Positions 7,045-22,971 of a stretch of DNA of 30,968 nucleotides are shown here, in pieces (the stretch's first letter is position 1; each line of letters opens with the position of its first letter). Both the position numbers and the translations under genes were made by a program. Source of the stretch: a virus. Its lineage: Duplodnaviria > Heunggongvirae > Uroviricota > Caudoviricetes. The notes under the pieces were generated by a model. The model ran no database searches. It saw only the letters and a list, made by a program, of their open reading frames with translations, and was not told the DNA's origin. The DNA is taken from the IMG/VR virus record IMGVR_UViG_3300047483_000428. One strand, given 5' to 3'.

Positions 7045-7071
7045 GGTGGTGCCTCTCTGTCTTACTCAAGC

Positions 7072-7887: not shown

Positions 7888-7914
7888 ATCTGGTTCCTCT
7901 CTGGATACAGATTA

Positions 7915-7943
7915 TGTATACAGTGATTCGTTCCGAATGTCAA
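7915..7943 (-). promoter_or_regulatory. GANTC-box promoter
   Basis: TTGACA-7-CGAATCA-3-TATACA; box at 7924-7930. Confidence 0.8.
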
Positions 7944-8344
7944 CCATTGAATGCCAGATTAAATGCGGCAGTTTCCTTTTCTTCATAATCTTCGTCAGAT
8001 GAAACATCAAAGCTATATCGAACCGCAGCCTTGATCTGGTCCCCAAACGCATTCACCAATCCATCGGTCCACCGATTAATGATGTCTTCCATTTGAGTTT
8101 CATCGGCTTCATAGATGCTGTAACCGTGGCGGGAACATTTGTCGTCTTGAAGTCCGTAGTAGTCATGAGTTACAGTATCGTATTCAATATCTTCTTGTAA
8201 TAGTGCTACTGCGCCAGACGATTGGCCAATATCGTCTTCTAACTCTTTGTTGCCTTCAAACACAACCATAACAAAGTTATCGGGTTCATCCTCGTTGTCA
8301 CGAAAATAGTTTGTGTGGAAACTCAACTCAAACATATAGCGCAT
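7940..8344 (-). CDS. Acidic hypothetical protein
   Basis: AGGAG RBS before ATG 8344 (track start 8392). Confidence 0.7.
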   Translation of the reverse strand: MRYMFELSFHTNYFRDNEDEPDNFVMVVFEGNKELEDDIGQSSGAVALLQEDIEYDTVTHDYYGLQDDKCSRHGYSIYEADETQMEDIINRWTDGLVNAFGDQIKAAVRYSFDVSSDEDYEEKETAAFNLAFNG

Positions 8345-11121: not shown

Positions 11122-11147
11122 AAAAAAGGCGACCGAAGCCGCCTTTT
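11122..11147 (-). terminator. Intrinsic terminator ending the nadV transcript
   Basis: Minus strand AAAAGGCGGC-TTCG-GTCGCCTTTTTT (cUUCGg loop plus U-tract). Confidence 0.85.
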
Positions 11148-11150
11148 CTG

Positions 11151-11342: not shown

Positions 11343-12753
11343 AGCGAGACACCATTTCAGTTTCAGGGTTCACAACCGCACGTTCACGGATTGCTTCAAA
11401 CGTATCTTCAAGAAGAAGGTCACCGTTTTCATATACAACCCGAAGAACTTTGTCTTCTTCACGAGCGTTCTTTTCTTCTACGGTTCGGAACCCGCAGCTT
11501 CCAATTCCACATTCGTGAACCAGTTCAAGGCGACCTTTCTTAGAAAGTTTACCTTTATCAGTGATTGGGTCTTTGTAAACATCAACCCAAACCCCATTCA
11601 CAAGTGCAGCAGAACACTTCATCGCAAACTTCTGGTCATCGCGTTGTGGAGCGCCAAGTAGAGCGCCACCCATACCAAATGCAACGTTGTCGGCACAGAA
11701 ACCATTTGCTTTCAGGCTTTCAAGAATAGCTTTGACACTATCCGAATTGATGCCATCACCTTGAATGATACGAACATGATTTAGAAGTTTGTAACCTTTT
11801 GCGTTTACAGTTGAACCAAAAGTTTTGTCCAACAGTTTTGCAACTTTTGTCACAACTTCAACTGGGTCACCAGAGTCGGGACGGACAACAAGAGTTGCGC
11901 CAGACTTGATTACTTCTTCGCGAAGTTCACCACCCCATAGATTTTCAACAGCGTTGAAAATATCATAGCTGTCAGAAACAACAGCAAGGATTGACCCAGG
12001 TTTAGCGAACTGTTTCAGCATATTTTTGTATGCTTTGACTTCGTTTTCGCGACCCCAAGAAGTAATGGTGCTATGTTCAGCAGCAGGAATAGAGAACCCT
12101 GCCATTGGCATTTTGTAGTAGCGTTTTGCACCAACTACAGCAGCAATAGTGTCAGTCCCCATAAAGCTGACCAAGTGAGCCATGCCGCCAAGAGTGGCAG
12201 ACTCATGCGAAGATGTTCCTCGCGCACCGAAGTCGTGTAGTTTGAAGTTGAGTCCAGCAAGATCGCCGCCAGTTTCAACCATGAACTTCTGAATGATTTT
12301 CTTGATTTCACGGCTGGTTGTGGCAACAGTGGTTGGATACCAGATTGCACGAAGCAATGCAGTTTCCAAGTAGGTGGTCAACCAGAAACACTTTGGATCG
12401 GTGTTTTCAACAGTAACCATTGCGTTGTGAACAGGAATCACAGTCCCTTCGGGCGCAGCTTTGATGCGAATAGGAAGTTTCCCGCCAAGTTCCTTGACGA
12501 TGTATTCCCAACCTTCACGATTGAATGGTTCCCCATGGCCAGTCCAGATTTCTTCTGCTTCATCCACATCTGCCATCGTGATTGGTTCAAGCAGATACTC
12601 TTTGATGAACGCTTGTAGTCCGAAGAACACAAGTTCATTGTATTTTCCGCCACGGCTTTCAATGTAGCTGAATACAGTTTCTGTATTTTCAGGGTATTGA
12701 ACGAACATTGACGCTTTGTAGCTGTCGGTATTTAGTAGTAGATTGCTTTTCAT
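11335..12753 (-). CDS. nadV: Nicotinamide phosphoribosyltransferase (Nampt)
   Basis: TDSYKASM, LHDFGARG, GTDT, SIPAAEHSTITSWG, VSDSYD, RPDSGDP, IIQGDG, FGMGG, KDPITDKGKLSKKG. Confidence 0.95.
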   Translation of the reverse strand: MKSNLLLNTDSYKASMFVQYPENTETVFSYIESRGGKYNELVFFGLQAFIKEYLLEPITMADVDEAEEIWTGHGEPFNREGWEYIVKELGGKLPIRIKAAPEGTVIPVHNAMVTVENTDPKCFWLTTYLETALLRAIWYPTTVATTSREIKKIIQKFMVETGGDLAGLNFKLHDFGARGTSSHESATLGGMAHLVSFMGTDTIAAVVGAKRYYKMPMAGFSIPAAEHSTITSWGRENEVKAYKNMLKQFAKPGSILAVVSDSYDIFNAVENLWGGELREEVIKSGATLVVRPDSGDPVEVVTKVAKLLDKTFGSTVNAKGYKLLNHVRIIQGDGINSDSVKAILESLKANGFCADNVAFGMGGALLGAPQRDDQKFAMKCSAALVNGVWVDVYKDPITDKGKLSKKGRLELVHECGIGSCGFRTVEEKNAREEDKVLRVVYENGDLLLEDTFEAIRERAVVNPETEMVSRYE

Positions 12754-12798
12754 AATAGAACTCCTCTATTGTTAGATTGCCAAACTCTCTGTTTGGAC
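12751..12798 (-). promoter_or_regulatory. Two-hairpin 5' leader of nadV
   Basis: CCAAAC-AGAGA-GTTTGG, then AATAGAG-GAG-TTCTATT abutting the ATG. Confidence 0.6.
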
Positions 12799-12802
12799 TT
12801 GA

Positions 12803-12833
12803 TGACATTACCACGTCATTGTGATAATGTCAA
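12803..12833 (-). promoter_or_regulatory. nadV promoter overlapped by a 12-bp-arm inverted repeat
   Basis: TTGACA-17-TAATGT; plus strand TGACATTACCAC-gtcatt-GTGATAATGTCA. Confidence 0.7.
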
Positions 12834-12837
12834 TAGG

Positions 12838-13149
12838 TTATGCAGCGGCTGGTCTGGATTCTTGCCATTCTTTTGTCCACCTTGGCAATTCACGATACCC
12901 AACAGGCCAATCATTTAGCCCAATATCAGTTAGTTTGCCGCAGCATGGACACTTGAATGATACGGCTGGTTCTTTTGTAAATATACCCCACCCCTCACCA
13001 GTTCCCTGATAATAACGAAGGTCATCGAACTCAAGTTCAAGCAATGCTTCGCATCCATTTTCGCCATTGCCCCATCCAGTGCATCGATGTTGCAGTGACC
13101 AAGTATTTTTTCCGTTTTTTCCCGCTTCAAGAATCTTCATTTTGCTCAC
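12838..13149 (-). CDS. Zn-ribbon-like small protein between nadM and nadV
   Basis: C...CEALL and CPCCG motifs; GTG start overlapping the nadM stop. Confidence 0.65.
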   Translation of the reverse strand: MSKMKILEAGKNGKNTWSLQHRCTGWGNGENGCEALLELEFDDLRYYQGTGEGWGIFTKEPAVSFKCPCCGKLTDIGLNDWPVGYRELPRWTKEWQESRPAAA

Positions 13150-14177
13150 CCAATGTTGATAAAGTTGTCGATGATGTGGAAGTGATCTTCAAACATCTTT
13201 TCTTGCTTCACGTCTTTGAACGGAACCCAGAACGCTTTTTCGGCATCATCCGAACCTTTCACTTTCGGCAGTTCACCAACGCCCAAATCAATGTGAAATG
13301 CTTGGGTAATGGTGCGACCACGAGACGAACGATTAGGAGCATCAAAAGTCTTGGAACCCTTGATAGAACCTTTCAGCACTGGGACAGGAACCTTGATTTT
13401 GGTTTCTTCTTTCAGTTCACGAATGGCACCATCCAGCATAGTCTCATCTTGGTTCAGGAAACCGCCAGGGAGCGCCCATTGGCCCTTGCCAGGCATGTCA
13501 CCACGCTTGACCAGTAGGATGTGTCCAGACTGCACTACAACGGCGTCTACGGTCATAAAAGTGGGCGGGAAAGGTGCAGCCTTCCATGCTTCTTTATACT
13601 TCTTGACCATGTTGTATTCTTGCTCAATAACTTTCCACTGAGCAGATGCAGATAGAAAAATGTCAAGCATCCTGCTTCTAGCAGCATCAGGCATCAAAGT
13701 TTTGAGATTCTCTAGCGTGTTACTATTAACTTCAAACAAAGATTTACGAATGTCAGTTGCGTTGATACCACCAACATCATCAACTTCAATATGATTCTTC
13801 CAACGTGGAAAGATGTTCAGGTAGTAGCTAGTGCTGTCTTTTGAATGGCCAATCAGACCAACATCTTGTGCATTCGGGACAGTAGCATCAACAATCTTTT
13901 GAATGGCGTTGACCCATTTGTTGTCGTCATATGGGTAATCTGACACAGGAACGACCTTCACACGAGTCGTGCGTTCAGTCTTACCTGGCGGATACACGGC
14001 TTCAATCATAGCCTTGCGTTCTTGGAATGTAAATGGATTTCGGATATTACGAGCAGCGAAGCTGGAACCTACGACTACAACAACTTCATGTGCTTGTTCA
14101 AGTGCAGCATCAATAACTGCTTTGTGTCCATTGTGAAACGGCTGGAACCGACCGATAAAAACGAGTGCGTCTCGCAT
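13146..14177 (-). CDS. nadM: Bifunctional NMN adenylyltransferase / ADP-ribose pyrophosphatase (NadM-Nudix)
   Basis: GRFQPFHNGH (HxGH), RNPF, NATDIR; Nudix box GGFLNQDETMLDGAIRELKEET; FEDH. Confidence 0.95.
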   Translation of the reverse strand: MRDALVFIGRFQPFHNGHKAVIDAALEQAHEVVVVVGSSFAARNIRNPFTFQERKAMIEAVYPPGKTERTTRVKVVPVSDYPYDDNKWVNAIQKIVDATVPNAQDVGLIGHSKDSTSYYLNIFPRWKNHIEVDDVGGINATDIRKSLFEVNSNTLENLKTLMPDAARSRMLDIFLSASAQWKVIEQEYNMVKKYKEAWKAAPFPPTFMTVDAVVVQSGHILLVKRGDMPGKGQWALPGGFLNQDETMLDGAIRELKEETKIKVPVPVLKGSIKGSKTFDAPNRSSRGRTITQAFHIDLGVGELPKVKGSDDAEKAFWVPFKDVKQEKMFEDHFHIIDNFINIG

Positions 14178-14224
14178 TGCAAAAACTCCTTTTGCTGTTA
14201 TGTGAAGGACTCTCTGTCCTTCAC
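14175..14224 (-). promoter_or_regulatory. Two-hairpin 5' leader of nadM
   Basis: GTGAAGGAC-AGAGA-GTCCTTCAC, then GCAAAAG-GAG-TTTTTGC ending 1 nt before the ATG. Confidence 0.6.
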
Positions 14225-14227
14225 TAT

Positions 14228-14258
14228 TATTTATACTTTATTTTCAAATATTTGTCAA
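14228..14258 (-). promoter_or_regulatory. nadM promoter; its -10 lies within a TATAAATA element
   Basis: TTGACA-17-TATAAA; TATAAATA at 14228-14235. Confidence 0.65.
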
Positions 14259-14261
14259 GCA

Positions 14262-15272
14262 TCATTCGTCATATTCAAACTCTTTTTCACGAGCGTTCAT
14301 TACATCCGTAGAAATCTTGTTGAGTAGACGATACTCTGCATATTCTTCTGACTGTGAACCTTGGTGCATAACAGGCATCCAAATCTTACGAGTTGCTTCC
14401 ATAAAGCTATTGACCATCTTACCAAGAAGTGCTTCGCGCATCAGTTCATACGCACCTTCTTTGTTTCCAGAAATAAACATTTCAAGAATAGGGTCAGAGA
14501 AGTTTACAATGTCTGCAAACCCACCACCAGCATAACCACTGCCAAATGCATGACCAAACGTATCTGACAGAATGTGGTCACGGCTTCCCTCAAAGAAATA
14601 CTGACGCATAAACAAGTCGTTTAGAATGTCACGCTGTTTTTGTGCGGTTTCATCATCGGCTTTGATGATGTCATTCACAGAGCCGAGTCGTGGCGATTTT
14701 TTATTTGCACAAAACTCCATATAGTCAGGAATCAATGTTGCAAGTTTTGCGTAGGTAATGTTCTTGAAATAGTATTGGTCAGTTTCCCACCCTTCTGGGA
14801 TTTCTGCATCTTTACGCTTATACCAATCAAACGTCCATTCATTCCACAGACGATCAACTACATCTTTACGAATCATAGTAAAGAAGACTTGTCTGTATTT
14901 TGGTTGACCTTCATATCCACGAAGTGGATTGTTCACACGAAGGCGTTTTTCATGAACAACTTCAAAGAAAGTGTCAATGTCAAAGCCTTCACGTTTTACA
15001 GCGATGTCATGATATTGATTTTCGCCAACTTCAAGTTCAATGAGGTTTTTGCGAATCCCTTCAACAATCAAGTCAAGAGCGACACCACTGCAATCTTCGC
15101 CCGCACCATAGTCATTGTATTTCGCACGAAACGGAATAATGACAGGATTATATAGTGCCGTAGAATAGCAAAAGCTATCTCGATACGATTCCACGATGGG
15201 GAATACGTATACTTCTTCACCAGAAATGATCGGTAGACTCGTTAGACCACAAGTTGCGTTCCAGCTTCCCAT
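14262..15272 (-). CDS. Hypothetical protein, 336 aa
   Basis: Long ORF with AAGGA RBS; N-terminal MGSWNATCGLTSLPI and YNDYG motifs; function not recognised. Confidence 0.85.
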   Translation of the reverse strand: MGSWNATCGLTSLPIISGEEVYVFPIVESYRDSFCYSTALYNPVIIPFRAKYNDYGAGEDCSGVALDLIVEGIRKNLIELEVGENQYHDIAVKREGFDIDTFFEVVHEKRLRVNNPLRGYEGQPKYRQVFFTMIRKDVVDRLWNEWTFDWYKRKDAEIPEGWETDQYYFKNITYAKLATLIPDYMEFCANKKSPRLGSVNDIIKADDETAQKQRDILNDLFMRQYFFEGSRDHILSDTFGHAFGSGYAGGGFADIVNFSDPILEMFISGNKEGAYELMREALLGKMVNSFMEATRKIWMPVMHQGSQSEEYAEYRLLNKISTDVMNAREKEFEYDE

Positions 15273-15283
15273 TGTGTATTCCT

Positions 15284-15859
15284 TTATTTGTTGTTACGGA
15301 TTGCAGTTGATAGATTGATAGTCAGGTTGATGCCACTACTCACATCTATCCAAAACTGAAGATGTTCATCGGAATCATAGAACGAGTTGTTGATTGCAGT
15401 TTCAAGCAGTTTCAACATAAAGTCAAGGTTTTTTTCTGCAAATGTGTTCACAGAAACATCGTATAGATACATACTTTCTTCCATAACCTTTGCATAGTTT
15501 ATGACAGTAGTATGAGTAGAAGCCAATCCATGCAAGTCTGCACGAATCATCCAACGAGTTGCTTCATCCATATGGGGCGTGATTTCATGATGTGCGGTTG
15601 CCAGAATGATTTCGGCAGCTTTTGTTCTGTTTGGATAGTATTTCAGCAACAACTGAGCAGAACGTTCTTCTTTCAATGGGTCTTTATCGTATACAACATC
15701 ATGAAACAACACGGCATAATCCAAATCCTCATCGTATGGAGCATTCATACGCTCTAAAAACATATAGCATTCTTGAATATGATCTGGGTTATGGTATGCG
15801 AGATTTTTGGCATACCATAACTCAGCAAATTTATTATTACCTAACCTAGACCATTGCAT
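15284..15859 (-). CDS. HD-superfamily metal-dependent phosphohydrolase
   Basis: YHNPDHI, LFHDVVYD, EERSA, RADL. Confidence 0.8.
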   Translation of the reverse strand: MQWSRLGNNKFAELWYAKNLAYHNPDHIQECYMFLERMNAPYDEDLDYAVLFHDVVYDKDPLKEERSAQLLLKYYPNRTKAAEIILATAHHEITPHMDEATRWMIRADLHGLASTHTTVINYAKVMEESMYLYDVSVNTFAEKNLDFMLKLLETAINNSFYDSDEHLQFWIDVSSGINLTINLSTAIRNNK

Positions 15860-16373
15860 TTTTCAGTTCCTTGCAGTTGCCATACAAATCAAAGATGGCA
15901 ACCACATCAAACCCTTCATCAATTTCAGGCTTCACGTAAGTATCCATCATACGATTGATAATATCAATCGGAATAGTCTTGCCAGGCCGACCAGCGAGGC
16001 GTTTCTGCCATTCGGCATAATCATCATCAGTAGCGGGCGGTTCAATGCACTCACACTCAACCCGATAACCAGCTTGTTTCATGCGATTGATGACCTTGCG
16101 CCGCTTACCGACACCAAGATTGGTTTGGTCCCAAATGATGGTGAGCTTGTCGCGAATGGCAACATCCAACCACTCGTTCATTTGCTTAGTGGCTTTGTCA
16201 ATATACTTGTCAAACGCGAAGTCATACGACCAGCCCATAGCGGCACCCCATTCTTCAATGAGGTTGTCTGTGCTGTAAACAAAAGCATCAGGCTCCATTG
16301 CAGCAAGCGATTGAACGCGAGTGCTCTTGCCGCTGGCAGGATAGCCAACCATGACAACACAGACAGGTTTCAT
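15846..16373 (-). CDS. P-loop kinase, AAA_33 / T4 PNK kinase-like
   Basis: GYPASGKST, STD, IWDQTNL...RRK, RLAGR. Confidence 0.8.
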   Translation of the reverse strand: MKPVCVVMVGYPASGKSTRVQSLAAMEPDAFVYSTDNLIEEWGAAMGWSYDFAFDKYIDKATKQMNEWLDVAIRDKLTIIWDQTNLGVGKRRKVINRMKQAGYRVECECIEPPATDDDYAEWQKRLAGRPGKTIPIDIINRMMDTYVKPEIDEGFDVVAIFDLYGNCKELKNAMV

Positions 16374-16815: not shown

Positions 16816-17038
16816 TTTCTACCCACTTTCCAGTAAGAATACCAAACGGACCAGCATACCAATAAGTAAACAGAACACTTTCGCTTTCGCTAAGTTCTGT
16901 TATCTTGCTGAAATACGGCTGGTCCAGATTGTTGTGTCGCCAAGGAGTTTGTGACGACCAATCATCTGACCAAAAAAACTTGGTGATACGTTTCTTTGAT
17001 TTCAGTTGAAACAGTTCGGTTGCCATCATTTCCCCCAA
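16802..17038 (-). CDS. Hypothetical protein
   Basis: About 75-78 aa; start uncertain. Confidence 0.5.
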   Translation of the reverse strand: MGEMMATELFQLKSKKRITKFFWSDDWSSQTPWRHNNLDQPYFSKITELSESESVLFTYWYAGPFGILTGKWVENDSK

Positions 17039-17394
17039 TGTTCAATGAAGTTGTTCATGTATTCATAGATGTTTTCCGCCCCAACAGGGTTCTTGGAATG
17101 AACCATAAACGAAAAGTTTTCTGGAAGTTCTTCAATCCCATCCATCACCATTTCACTGATGCGTTGTGCGATTTCATAACCAGTCCGTTCATTTTCACCA
17201 AGGTCATGGTCAAAACTGATCATCACTGGCATACCAAAAGTGAGAATGATATCCTCAACTTCATACCAGTTGCGGGCAATAACCCAATCATGAACTTTAT
17301 ACATATATTGTTCTGTGAGCGATTTCGCCCAAGTCACATCACTTGGAACTCTCTCATCGTCAATGAACAGATTATAACCCATATTATTCTCCAT
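17026..17394 (-). CDS. Stand-alone receiver-like protein (cyclic-phosphate-processing receiver family)
   Basis: LFIDDER, ISFDHDLG, TGYE, VHSKNPVGAENI motifs. Confidence 0.75.
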   Translation of the reverse strand: MENNMGYNLFIDDERVPSDVTWAKSLTEQYMYKVHDWVIARNWYEVEDIILTFGMPVMISFDHDLGENERTGYEIAQRISEMVMDGIEELPENFSFMVHSKNPVGAENIYEYMNNFIEHWGK

Positions 17395-21129: not shown

Positions 21130-21492
21130 TCAGAGATTCAGTTCAGCGCGTTCTTCAGCAGTCAACTTTGCTAACGCATTCTTGCGAATTTGACGTTTAC
21201 GTTCACGTTCACGCGCTTCGTTTTCCTTGGATTCCAAAGTCCAGTCCATTTCAGTCAAAGTGGAGTGGCTTTTCTCCGTATATTGGAGAGACAGAACAAA
21301 ACGATTTTCGTGATCATCCCGATCAACCACCAAAAACTCACCATTACGAACTTCAATCTCGTAGTTCATGTTGGTTGCGCGTTCCAGAGTAGTCATCAGA
21401 AAAGTTGGATATTCCGCCTTGGACTGTTCCAACAGTTCTTCTGCTTTTTTAGCGTATCGGGCATTTCTCTCTGCTTTGGTTTCGCGGGCCAT
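21130..21492 (-). CDS. Hypothetical protein
   Basis: 120 aa after a GANTC-box promoter. Confidence 0.75.
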   Translation of the reverse strand: MARETKAERNARYAKKAEELLEQSKAEYPTFLMTTLERATNMNYEIEVRNGEFLVVDRDDHENRFVLSLQYTEKSHSTLTEMDWTLESKENEARERERKRQIRKNALAKLTAEERAELNL

Positions 21493-21519
21493 GATCTTCT
21501 CTCTTTTGCTTACAGGTTA

Positions 21520-21548
21520 TGTATAAGCTGATTCGCAACAGATGTCAA
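21520..21548 (-). promoter_or_regulatory. GANTC-box promoter
   Basis: TTGACA-7-CGAATCA-3-TATACA; box at 21529-21535. Confidence 0.8.
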
Positions 21549-22623: not shown

Positions 22624-22648
22624 GTCATTCCCTCTCTGTTACAGTATA

Positions 22649-22677
22649 TGTATAGAGTGATTCGGTGGGATTGTCAA
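22649..22677 (-). promoter_or_regulatory. GANTC-box promoter
   Basis: TTGACA-7-CGAATCA-3-TATACA; box at 22658-22664. Confidence 0.8.
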
Positions 22678-22680
22678 TAC

Positions 22681-22971
22681 TTATTTTTTGTATTTGTTGA
22701 GAAGGGGCGAAAGATTTATGGTAGGTTCTGGATTGGAAACAACGATCTGAGTTCTTTTCTTGATATGAACCTTCCAAGCACCCTCATTGAGTTGTTCGCA
22801 TTTCAAAGCATAAGGGTCAGACGAAACCCAGTGATGAAACTGCATTTGCATCTGACCCATACCCGTAATAACAACGATGTATTTTTTGTCTTTCCAGTAA
22901 CTTTCTTGTGTTACTCTGCGGTATTCTTTCCAAGCATCATGTATTGGAAACCCATGTAGGTCTAATTTCAT
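22681..22971 (-). CDS. Stand-alone Smr (small MutS-related) domain protein
   Basis: KLDLHG at the N-terminus, VVITGMG, terminal GAWKV. Confidence 0.75.
   Translation of the reverse strand: MKLDLHGFPIHDAWKEYRRVTQESYWKDKKYIVVITGMGQMQMQFHHWVSSDPYALKCEQLNEGAWKVHIKKRTQIVVSNPEPTINLSPLLNKYKK

Follow-up and report, generated by a model that had tools for sequence, protein, structure and literature searches.

Why do two nicotinamide adenine dinucleotide (NAD) salvage genes of one uncultured phage, nadM and nadV, carry mRNA leaders whose stems differ in sequence and yet pair in the same way around identical loops? The two genes lie in a stretch of 30,968 nt (hereafter the window, meaning the whole of the DNA analysed) from IMG/VR phage record IMGVR_UViG_3300047483_000428, which is 102,689 bp long and has a CheckV completeness of 27%. 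Both leaders, read on the minus strand, consist of an upstream hairpin with a pentaloop (hairpin 1), a short linker, and a second hairpin at the ribosome-binding site (RBS) that carries the Shine-Dalgarno (SD) sequence (hairpin 2). An earlier note, made from the letters of the window alone, had proposed that they represent a shared and undescribed RNA element of NAD-salvage genes. This core reading is supported by the comparisons reported here, as distant phages and bacteria have the same leader before nadV and nadM. We consider it probable, if well short of certain, that the window leaders are copies of a conserved cis-acting mRNA element that is specific to NAD-salvage genes and acts as a translational operator.

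A megablast search against 50,697 phage records found no close relative of the locus, and since there were thus no near-identical orthologous leaders to compare, protein-anchored loci were used instead, namely 80 viral loci fetched by NadV homology (52-66% identity). Into a first covariance model (R1) went 15 leaders from distant phages, whose NadV proteins are 52-66% identical, and zero window sequences. On the window R1 ranks the nadV leader (12751-12798) first with 39.8 bits (E 1.2e-6) and the nadM leader second with 21.2 bits (E 0.011), the next match having an E of 2.2. Because the model contains no window sequence, the assignment of both leaders to the family is free of circularity. A second model of 63 leaders (R2), run on the whole 102.7-kb record, returns only the same two leaders, with E values of 6.8e-7 (nadV) and 0.00115 (nadM), and the covariance models found no third copy in either the window or the record. 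The earlier note had also seen no other gene in the window with the arrangement; in a uniqueness test over 185 crude gene calls covering the 102.7 kb, just nadM and nadV have both a 7-bp GAG-loop RBS hairpin at the ATG and an upstream hairpin of at least 6 bp. The likeness of the two window leaders is not by chance. Each has a hairpin with an A-N-N-G-A loop, a GGAG hairpin, a significant score with the model, and an NAD gene downstream on the coding strand. Across the 80 loci and the window together, R1 yields 77 matches at E <0.1, all on the gene strand and all sitting at nadV, at nadM, or at small open reading frames (ORFs) that head nadM operons.

Conservation and covariation of the leader

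The 100 nt upstream of each gene were compared, and a recurring layout emerged. A sigma-70-like promoter is often followed by a hairpin of variable stem and G-AUAGA-C loop, a short AU-rich linker, and a small second hairpin that has AGGAG at its tip and ends at the ATG. In 83 distinct leaders loop positions A1, G4 and A5 are invariant, giving the consensus A-N-N-G-A. G-AUAGA-C itself is present in 74 of the 83, and the minority loops are G-ACAGA-C, G-AAAGA-C, G-AGAGA-C, C-AGUGA-G, C-AAAGA-G, C-AUAGA-G and C-AGAGA-G; beyond these tabulated leaders, three further nadV leaders have C-AUGGA-G. The C-AGAGA-G loop of the window is therefore a minority variant, one that helps to define the consensus. 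The C-G closing pair recurs in three loci (L002, L046 and L061), and in L002, which has the NadV most similar to that of the window, it is found on both genes.

The distance between the two loops is likewise constrained. Counted from loop 1, the SD sequence has its GG after 19-26 nt (median 22) in the 83-leader set, and after 19-27 nt in 47 of the 48 leaders of a set that was not selected by a model. Leaders with longer stem arms have shorter linkers (Spearman -0.61, a correlation to which model selection may contribute). Hairpin 2 ends 0-3 nt from the start codon or overlaps it, and its 3' arm makes up the spacer between SD and AUG. This hairpin is much stronger in GC-rich bacteria, where whole leaders fold at about -20 to -27 kcal/mol.

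The earlier note had pointed to stems that differ and still pair, and covariation across distant phages and bacteria is indeed strong. In a model-made alignment of 67 distinct leaders 94.6% of cells pair, as against 63% in shuffled controls, and in a MAFFT-only alignment of 27 phage and bacterial leaders the corresponding values for hairpin 1 are 95.4% and 59%; all these pairing percentages are inflated, as the leader sets were picked by a hairpin finder or by a model. Double changes occur in 12 of the 13 pairs of the larger alignment, where the covariation score is 0.72 compared with at most 0.09 for slid partners, and hairpin 1 of the MAFFT-only alignment scores 0.99 compared with at most 0.24. 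Among 147 leaders taken purely by protein homology, the loop is flanked by a perfect stem in 85. Paired columns contain 97 G-U or U-G combinations and only 9 of A-C or C-A, an excess which indicates that the pairing takes place in the sense-strand transcript and not in DNA or in an antisense RNA.

Two additional pairings were considered and rejected. In some AU-rich members loop 1 could pair with the 3' arm of hairpin 2 as a pseudoknot, but this fails in the AUGGA, ACAGA and AGUGA variants as well as in the GC-rich bacteria, and an anti-SD segment in hairpin 1 (UCCUU) is present in the nadM leader of the window but not in its nadV leader or in the family.

Occurrence in phages and bacteria

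The genes led by the element are nadV, nadM (also called natV), the small ORFs at the head of nadM operons, and a NadR-like gene. It was found in most of the 80 uncultured phage loci, and in about 1.6 Mb of whole phage records nine of nine matches fall in leaders of NAD genes. Five whole phage records of 210-457 kb, searched with R2, gave seven matches, all of them leaders of nadV or of nadM operons. Xanthomonas phage vB_XciM_LucasX has the element on both genes, and Ralstonia phage RsoM2USA has the RBS hairpin only, together with a different upstream hairpin. The canonical form was not found in Vibrio phage CZ01 (KVP40-like) or in Acidovorax phage ACP17.

Bacterial chromosomes carry it as well. 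NadV-anchored loci of Xanthomonas, Lysobacter, Thermomonas, Microbulbifer and Neptuniibacter have the element with GC-rich stems, one copy standing before nadV and, where checked, another about 1.2 kb upstream before nadM. As R2 is biased to AT-rich phage leaders and scores GC-rich genomes poorly, a third model (R3) was built from bacterial leaders; on five whole bacterial genomes its strong matches are the nadV and nadM leaders. The element is nevertheless sparse, since only 3 of 151 evenly sampled Gammaproteobacteria score. Two of the three are new, and one of these has a nadV leader. The other (G044) has hairpin 1 with no clear SD hairpin or ORF and was not counted. A gene for the bifunctional NadM-Nudix protein is next to nadV in 4/4 bona fide motif-bearing bacterial genomes tested, and nearby in 72 of the 80 nadV-bearing phage loci. 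The presence of the motif does not correlate cleanly with NadM subtype: loci with divergent NadM (at most 38% identity) mostly fail R1, and several of them carry loop variants.

A metagenome-assembled genome (MAG) of the Bdellovibrionales has extra copies of the element, one before a NadR-like NMNAT-kinase gene and one before a 165-aa ORF without an NAD link. The short ORF headed by the motif in this MAG has 8-20 codons. Between the motif and the nadV or NadR-like gene there is a second conserved stretch of about 200 nt (L173, about 1550-1830; L176, about 1550-1800) with long-range complementarity (UUGAGCAAGCGUGCC ... UUUGCUCAAGA) and no Rfam match, which may be another structured leader.

Several further genes and contigs deserve mention. 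Two of the small ORFs that stand directly before nadM and have the leader motif (L013:1746-2072 and L055:5556-5879; the small ORFs are 108-117 aa long) belong to phrog_12218, of unknown function, and share a coiled-coil N-terminus and the motif NHTDGCGW(F/Y)YE; the ORF at L053:3818-4168 is unrelated. The phrog_12218 ORFs appear to be unrecognised members of a phage NAD regulon. Another locus encodes a phage PnuC, a transporter of nicotinamide mononucleotide (NMN) or nicotinamide riboside, at L049:1690-2253, about 1.7 kb upstream of nadV; its leader match (E 0.07) covers the RBS-hairpin half only and was not counted. Two contigs labelled as Bacillaceae (L091, 5.6 kb) and Campylobacterales (L126, 3.5 kb) MAGs have AT-rich nadV leaders of the phage type, scoring 61 and 36.6 bits, and these contigs may be phage fragments that were binned with bacteria.

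The nadM-nadV locus in the window

The sequences and coordinates that the earlier note had given for the two leaders match the letters in full (Table 1), as do its statements that both RBS hairpins are 17 nt long, that 22 nt separate the two loops in each leader, that the loops and closing pairs are identical (C-AGAGA-G and G-GAG-U), and that hairpin 1 starts close to the predicted +1. It had also remarked on a TAACA shared by the linkers. The word does lie within or at the end of both, but it is a local feature, the family linker having no conserved nucleotide.

Table 1. Features of the nadM-nadV locus in window coordinates; promoters and transcription starts are predictions by consensus match.
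Feature	Position	Strand	Details
Sigma-70-like promoter of nadM	14230..14258	-	TTGACA 14258-14253, 17-nt spacer, TATAAA 14235-14230; consensus match only; begins 3 nt past the TGA (14264-14262) of the upstream gene
nadM leader hairpin 1	14202..14224	-	GTGAAGGAC-AGAGA-GTCCTTCAC; 9-bp stem, pentaloop 14215-14211, C-G closing pair; 5 nt after TATAAA; as RNA GUGAAGGAC-AGAGA-GUCCUUCAC, -13.4 kcal/mol, aligned to the family model positions
nadM leader linker	14201-14196	-	ATAACA (6 nt), sequence read
nadM leader hairpin 2	14179..14195	-	GCAAAAG-GAG-UUUUUGC; SD GGAG at loop; then one A and AUG 14177-14175; -3.0 kcal/mol; GGAG unpaired probability 0.64-0.72
nadM/natV, bifunctional NMN adenylyltransferase-Nudix, 343 aa	13146..14177	-	Pfam CTP_transf_like 3e-13, NUDIX 1.8e-20
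Cys-rich ORF (Zn-ribbon-like), 100 aa, between nadM and nadV	12838..13140	-	sub-threshold Pfam match only
Sigma-70-like promoter of nadV	12805..12833	-	TTGACA 12833-12828, 17-nt spacer, TAATGT 12810-12805; consensus match only
nadV leader hairpin 1	12780..12798	-	GU 12798-12797, then 6-bp stem CCAAAC/GUUUGG at 12796-12780; pentaloop AGAGA 12790-12786, C-G closing pair; 6-8 nt after TAATGT; -5.2 kcal/mol
nadV leader linker	12779-12771	-	CAATCTAAC (9 nt), sequence read
nadV leader hairpin 2	12754..12770	-	AAUAGAG-GAG-UUCUAUU; GGAG at loop; abuts AUG 12753-12751; -2.1 kcal/mol; GGAG unpaired probability 0.56-0.93
nadV, nicotinamide phosphoribosyltransferase (NAMPT), 472 aa	11335..12753	-	Pfam NAMPT_N 4.3e-29, NAPRTase 4.7e-62
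Intrinsic-terminator-like hairpin and U-run	11122..11149	-	12-bp GC-rich stem, then TTTTTT; ~190 nt past nadV

ViennaRNA predicts both hairpins in each of the two leaders. Folding energies are -19.4 kcal/mol for the nadM leader (z -5.6) and -9.2 kcal/mol for the nadV leader (z -1.4, not significant alone); the flanks of nadV hairpin 1, GUCC...GGCAA, agree with nadV leaders of other phages. The terminator-like hairpin downstream of nadV is likely the end of the transcription unit. Upstream of nadM, a 336-aa protein of phrog_5960, of unknown function, is encoded at 14262-15272 (-), followed by an AAA_33 kinase-like protein (15846-16373, -) and a protein with a cyclic-phosphate-processing receiver domain (cREC_REC; 17026-17394, -); all three genes are without the leader motif.

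The heptamer CAGAGAG was tried as a generic leader word and rejected: it occurs six times in the window, always on the minus strand (2.8 expected), and is not specific, whereas the two-hairpin arrangement is. At three other genes CAGAGAGG serves as a plain SD sequence with no hairpin (7053-7059, 7897-7903 and 22632-22638, -), 6-8 nt before the ATG and right after a TTGACA...TATxxT promoter. There is also a strongly conserved early-promoter cassette, TTGACA-N7-CGAATCA-N3-TATACATA-N2-CTGTA, repeated before small genes at around 7897-7960, 21480-21530 and 22640-22700 (-) and at many sites in the 102.7-kb record.

Candidate modes of action and known counterparts

How might such a leader work? Translation initiation is the likely target, because hairpin 2 contains the SD sequence and ends at the start codon. 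The earlier note had suggested that the hairpin occludes the SD sequence. The SD does lie inside hairpin 2, but GGAG is mostly unpaired in the free RNA; hairpin 2 being weak, the free window RNA should be translatable, and with the SD core exposed repression would need a bound factor. We envisage that hairpin 1, near the predicted 5' end, and hairpin 2 together would form the translational operator, in which a trans-acting factor would recognise the pentaloop and the SD loop at their fixed distance and clamp the weak hairpin 2, denying access to the 30S subunit. In this way nadV, nadM and their operon partners could be tuned together to NAD status, and in a phage the rebuilding of NAD by NadV and NatV (the NARP2 pathway) could be tied to NAD depletion in the infected cell. 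In GC-rich bacteria the balance between open and closed hairpin 2 may differ. As to the factor, a protein (NadM-Nudix, NadV or a widespread host protein) takes somewhat under half of our expectation and an NAD-related metabolite about a third, with the remainder going to other possibilities.

Several observations weigh against a repressing translational operator of NAD-salvage genes. The free RNA displays GGAG rather than hiding it, and the element could enhance or merely permit translation instead of repressing it. Conservation is confined to about 7 nt besides the SD sequence; inspection by eye detected neither a conserved linker nucleotide nor a pairing partner for a loop pseudoknot, which leaves little from which a ligand pocket could be formed. 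In the MAG of the Bdellovibrionales, 255-290 nt separate the element from the enzyme genes downstream, and its hairpin 2 heads the short ORF only, so that control of the enzymes there would be indirect. The inflation of the pairing percentages noted above belongs here as well.

One candidate explanation is an operator bound by protein, whether NadM-Nudix or NadV itself in an autogenous circuit (compare IRP1 and the iron-responsive element (IRE), PyrR, and T4 gp43) or a common host RNA-binding protein. We hold this explanation possible, at a little less than an even chance. Hairpins bound by proteins classically combine a fixed short loop with a variable stem, the fixed spacing of two loops suits a dimer, and a self-contained system of this kind would be portable. 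NadM-Nudix and NadV are the only gene products always present to serve as a protein reader, and the genomic proximity of the two genes reported above fits, but their co-occurrence is expected anyway, both being regulated genes. Neither enzyme is known to bind RNA, and no extra domain was seen with Pfam. The GGA of CsrA sites is present in hairpin 2 but missing from loop 1 in most leaders (none of the 83 has it). The Zn-ribbon protein encoded between nadM and nadV, which the earlier note had listed as a reader, is an unlikely one: the ORF is not conserved, having no PHROG match and no homolog in any of the 80 related motif-bearing NAD loci, and is probably not part of the element.

Alternatively, the leader might need no protein. 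As a riboswitch, its two loops would dock around NAD+, NMN, ADP-ribose, nicotinamide or phosphoribosyl pyrophosphate (PRPP), and docking would bury the SD sequence. The element moves among bacteria of several orders and phages that differ widely in base composition, with only the NAD genes in common, as expected of a host-independent sensor, and its invariant loop nucleotides and fixed loop-to-loop spacing, next to a linker of variable sequence, point the same way. With no Rfam match it would constitute a new class. We nonetheless find this account doubtful, given that very few nucleotides are conserved for a ligand of the size of NAD+, that the purine-only loops have no Watson-Crick complementarity to each other, that loop positions 2 and 3 can change and the closing pair flips, and that no alternative pairing of an expression-platform kind was seen. 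Unlikely, by our estimate, is the more specific proposal of a third and very small class of NAD-pathway riboswitch, in which pentaloop and SD loop dock around an NAD-related molecule, and depletion of NAD+ by host defences, or their release of nicotinamide and ADP-ribose, sets off translation of NadV-NatV.

Two further accounts dispense with an RNA sensor altogether. Hairpin 1 could be a 5'-terminal stabiliser against RNase E and RppH, with hairpin 2 merely presenting the SD sequence in a constitutive leader; in keeping with this, in the window only a few nt separate the start of hairpin 1 from the predicted +1, in 23 of 52 phage leaders it comes 5-20 nt after a good -10 element, and GGAG is exposed in the loop of hairpin 2. 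A stabiliser, however, requires neither an invariant loop nor a fixed distance to the SD sequence, would not be expected to be restricted to NAD genes, and fits poorly with an element distant from the enzyme genes, as in the Bdellovibrionales MAG. We regard it as improbable. Alternatively, hairpin 1 could be a palindromic DNA site over the transcription start for NrtR or another NAD repressor. It is an inverted repeat at the promoter, its 8+5+8 = 21 bp in Xanthomonadales is a typical NrtR-box length (PMC2330246), and in Neptuniibacter nrtR is divergent from nadM. To this idea we give almost no credence, since the arms of the element differ within one genome (in the window, between the nadM and nadV sites) around a conserved asymmetric centre, the reverse of NrtR boxes (PMC2330246), since the G-U over A-C bias and the strict orientation and spacing relative to the SD sequence also count against it, and since Neptuniibacter has other palindromes upstream of the motif. 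The NrtR there (Nudix and NrtR winged helix) is encoded at L122:390-1115 (-), and palindromes such as TTAAGTGATTGCAAATCACTTAA lie at L122:2330-2400, upstream of the nadV leader motif; these separate palindromes suggest two layers, so that DNA-level and RNA-level control of NAD genes may coexist in this bacterium.

The translational operator, if this is what the leader is, would matter beyond the window. Many phages use NadV and NatV (NARP2) to restore NAD+ once defence systems have depleted it, and no description of the control of their genes was found in the literature searched. That phages and bacteria have a leader in common suggests a post-transcriptional control dedicated to nicotinamide salvage, which would link the element directly to phage counter-defence through NAD+ reconstitution. 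The leader also offers a compact regulon marker for further NAD-linked genes, for instance the small ORFs and the NadR-like gene. Binding of a metabolite by the 50-nt RNA would make it a small natural sensor and a riboswitch of a new class; binding by NadM or NadV would add a further example of metabolic enzymes that regulate their own mRNAs. Two roles make good candidates for the element, that of a very small riboswitch and that of a translational operator of nicotinamide salvage bound by an enzyme or another protein.

Is the leader already known? A cmscan search of Rfam 15 (4227 families) at permissive E values of up to 1-5 covered the window, seven phage loci and ten bacterial loci and gave no match at the leaders, and neither a full-text literature search nor term look-ups in the 2008 NrtR paper and a 224-motif survey found a description of it. 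It appears undescribed in both the RNA family catalogue and the literature. The NrtR operators of nadM-nadV, prs-nadV and further NAD operons regulate the same genes and, like hairpin 1, are palindromic, stand at the promoter and measure about 21 bp. In NrtR boxes, palindromes of roughly 21 bp, the arms are conserved (core GT-N7-AC) and the centre is free (Rodionov et al. 2008, PMC2330246). They act on DNA, whereas the element has the opposite pattern of conservation and a structure that is strand-specific RNA; with variable arms, a fixed asymmetric centre and strand-specific pairing, an NrtR-type DNA operator is disfavoured. NARP2 itself (NadV and NatV, in Vibrio phage KVP40 and relatives) is the pathway of the two genes that the element leads, and the papers found on it describe the enzymes, with no leader RNA in titles, abstracts or term counts.

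Operators read by proteins, such as the MS2 coat-replicase hairpin, those of T4 RegA and gp43, IRP1-IRE and PyrR, have in common a short hairpin at the start site whose loop is fixed and whose stem can vary. CsrA bridges two loops, one of them at the SD sequence, and IRP1 and PyrR are metabolic enzymes or their relatives that bind mRNAs of their own pathways. The element differs from these systems in that its binding protein is a candidate only, loop 1 is mostly without GGA, and no Rfam family of PyrR sites matches it.

Among riboswitches, NAD+-I (the nadA motif) and NAD+-II (the pnuC motif) are likewise 5'-leader RNAs on genes of NAD biosynthesis or salvage, and NAD+-II likewise acts at the SD sequence. 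The earlier note had found no resemblance to these classes, and the Rfam search, which matched neither, excludes both as families. In place of an internal-loop aptamer or a pseudoknot the element has two simple hairpins and a pentaloop, and its genes are nadV and nadM. The nearest architectural analogue is Guanidine-II (mini-ykkC), in which two small hairpins with conserved loops are joined by a free linker, the second standing by the RBS. The leaders do not have the ACGR tetraloops of both Guanidine-II hairpins, nor an Rfam match; instead their two loops differ from each other (A-N-N-G-A and GGAG), the length of the linker is constrained, and the genes they precede are unrelated to guanidine.

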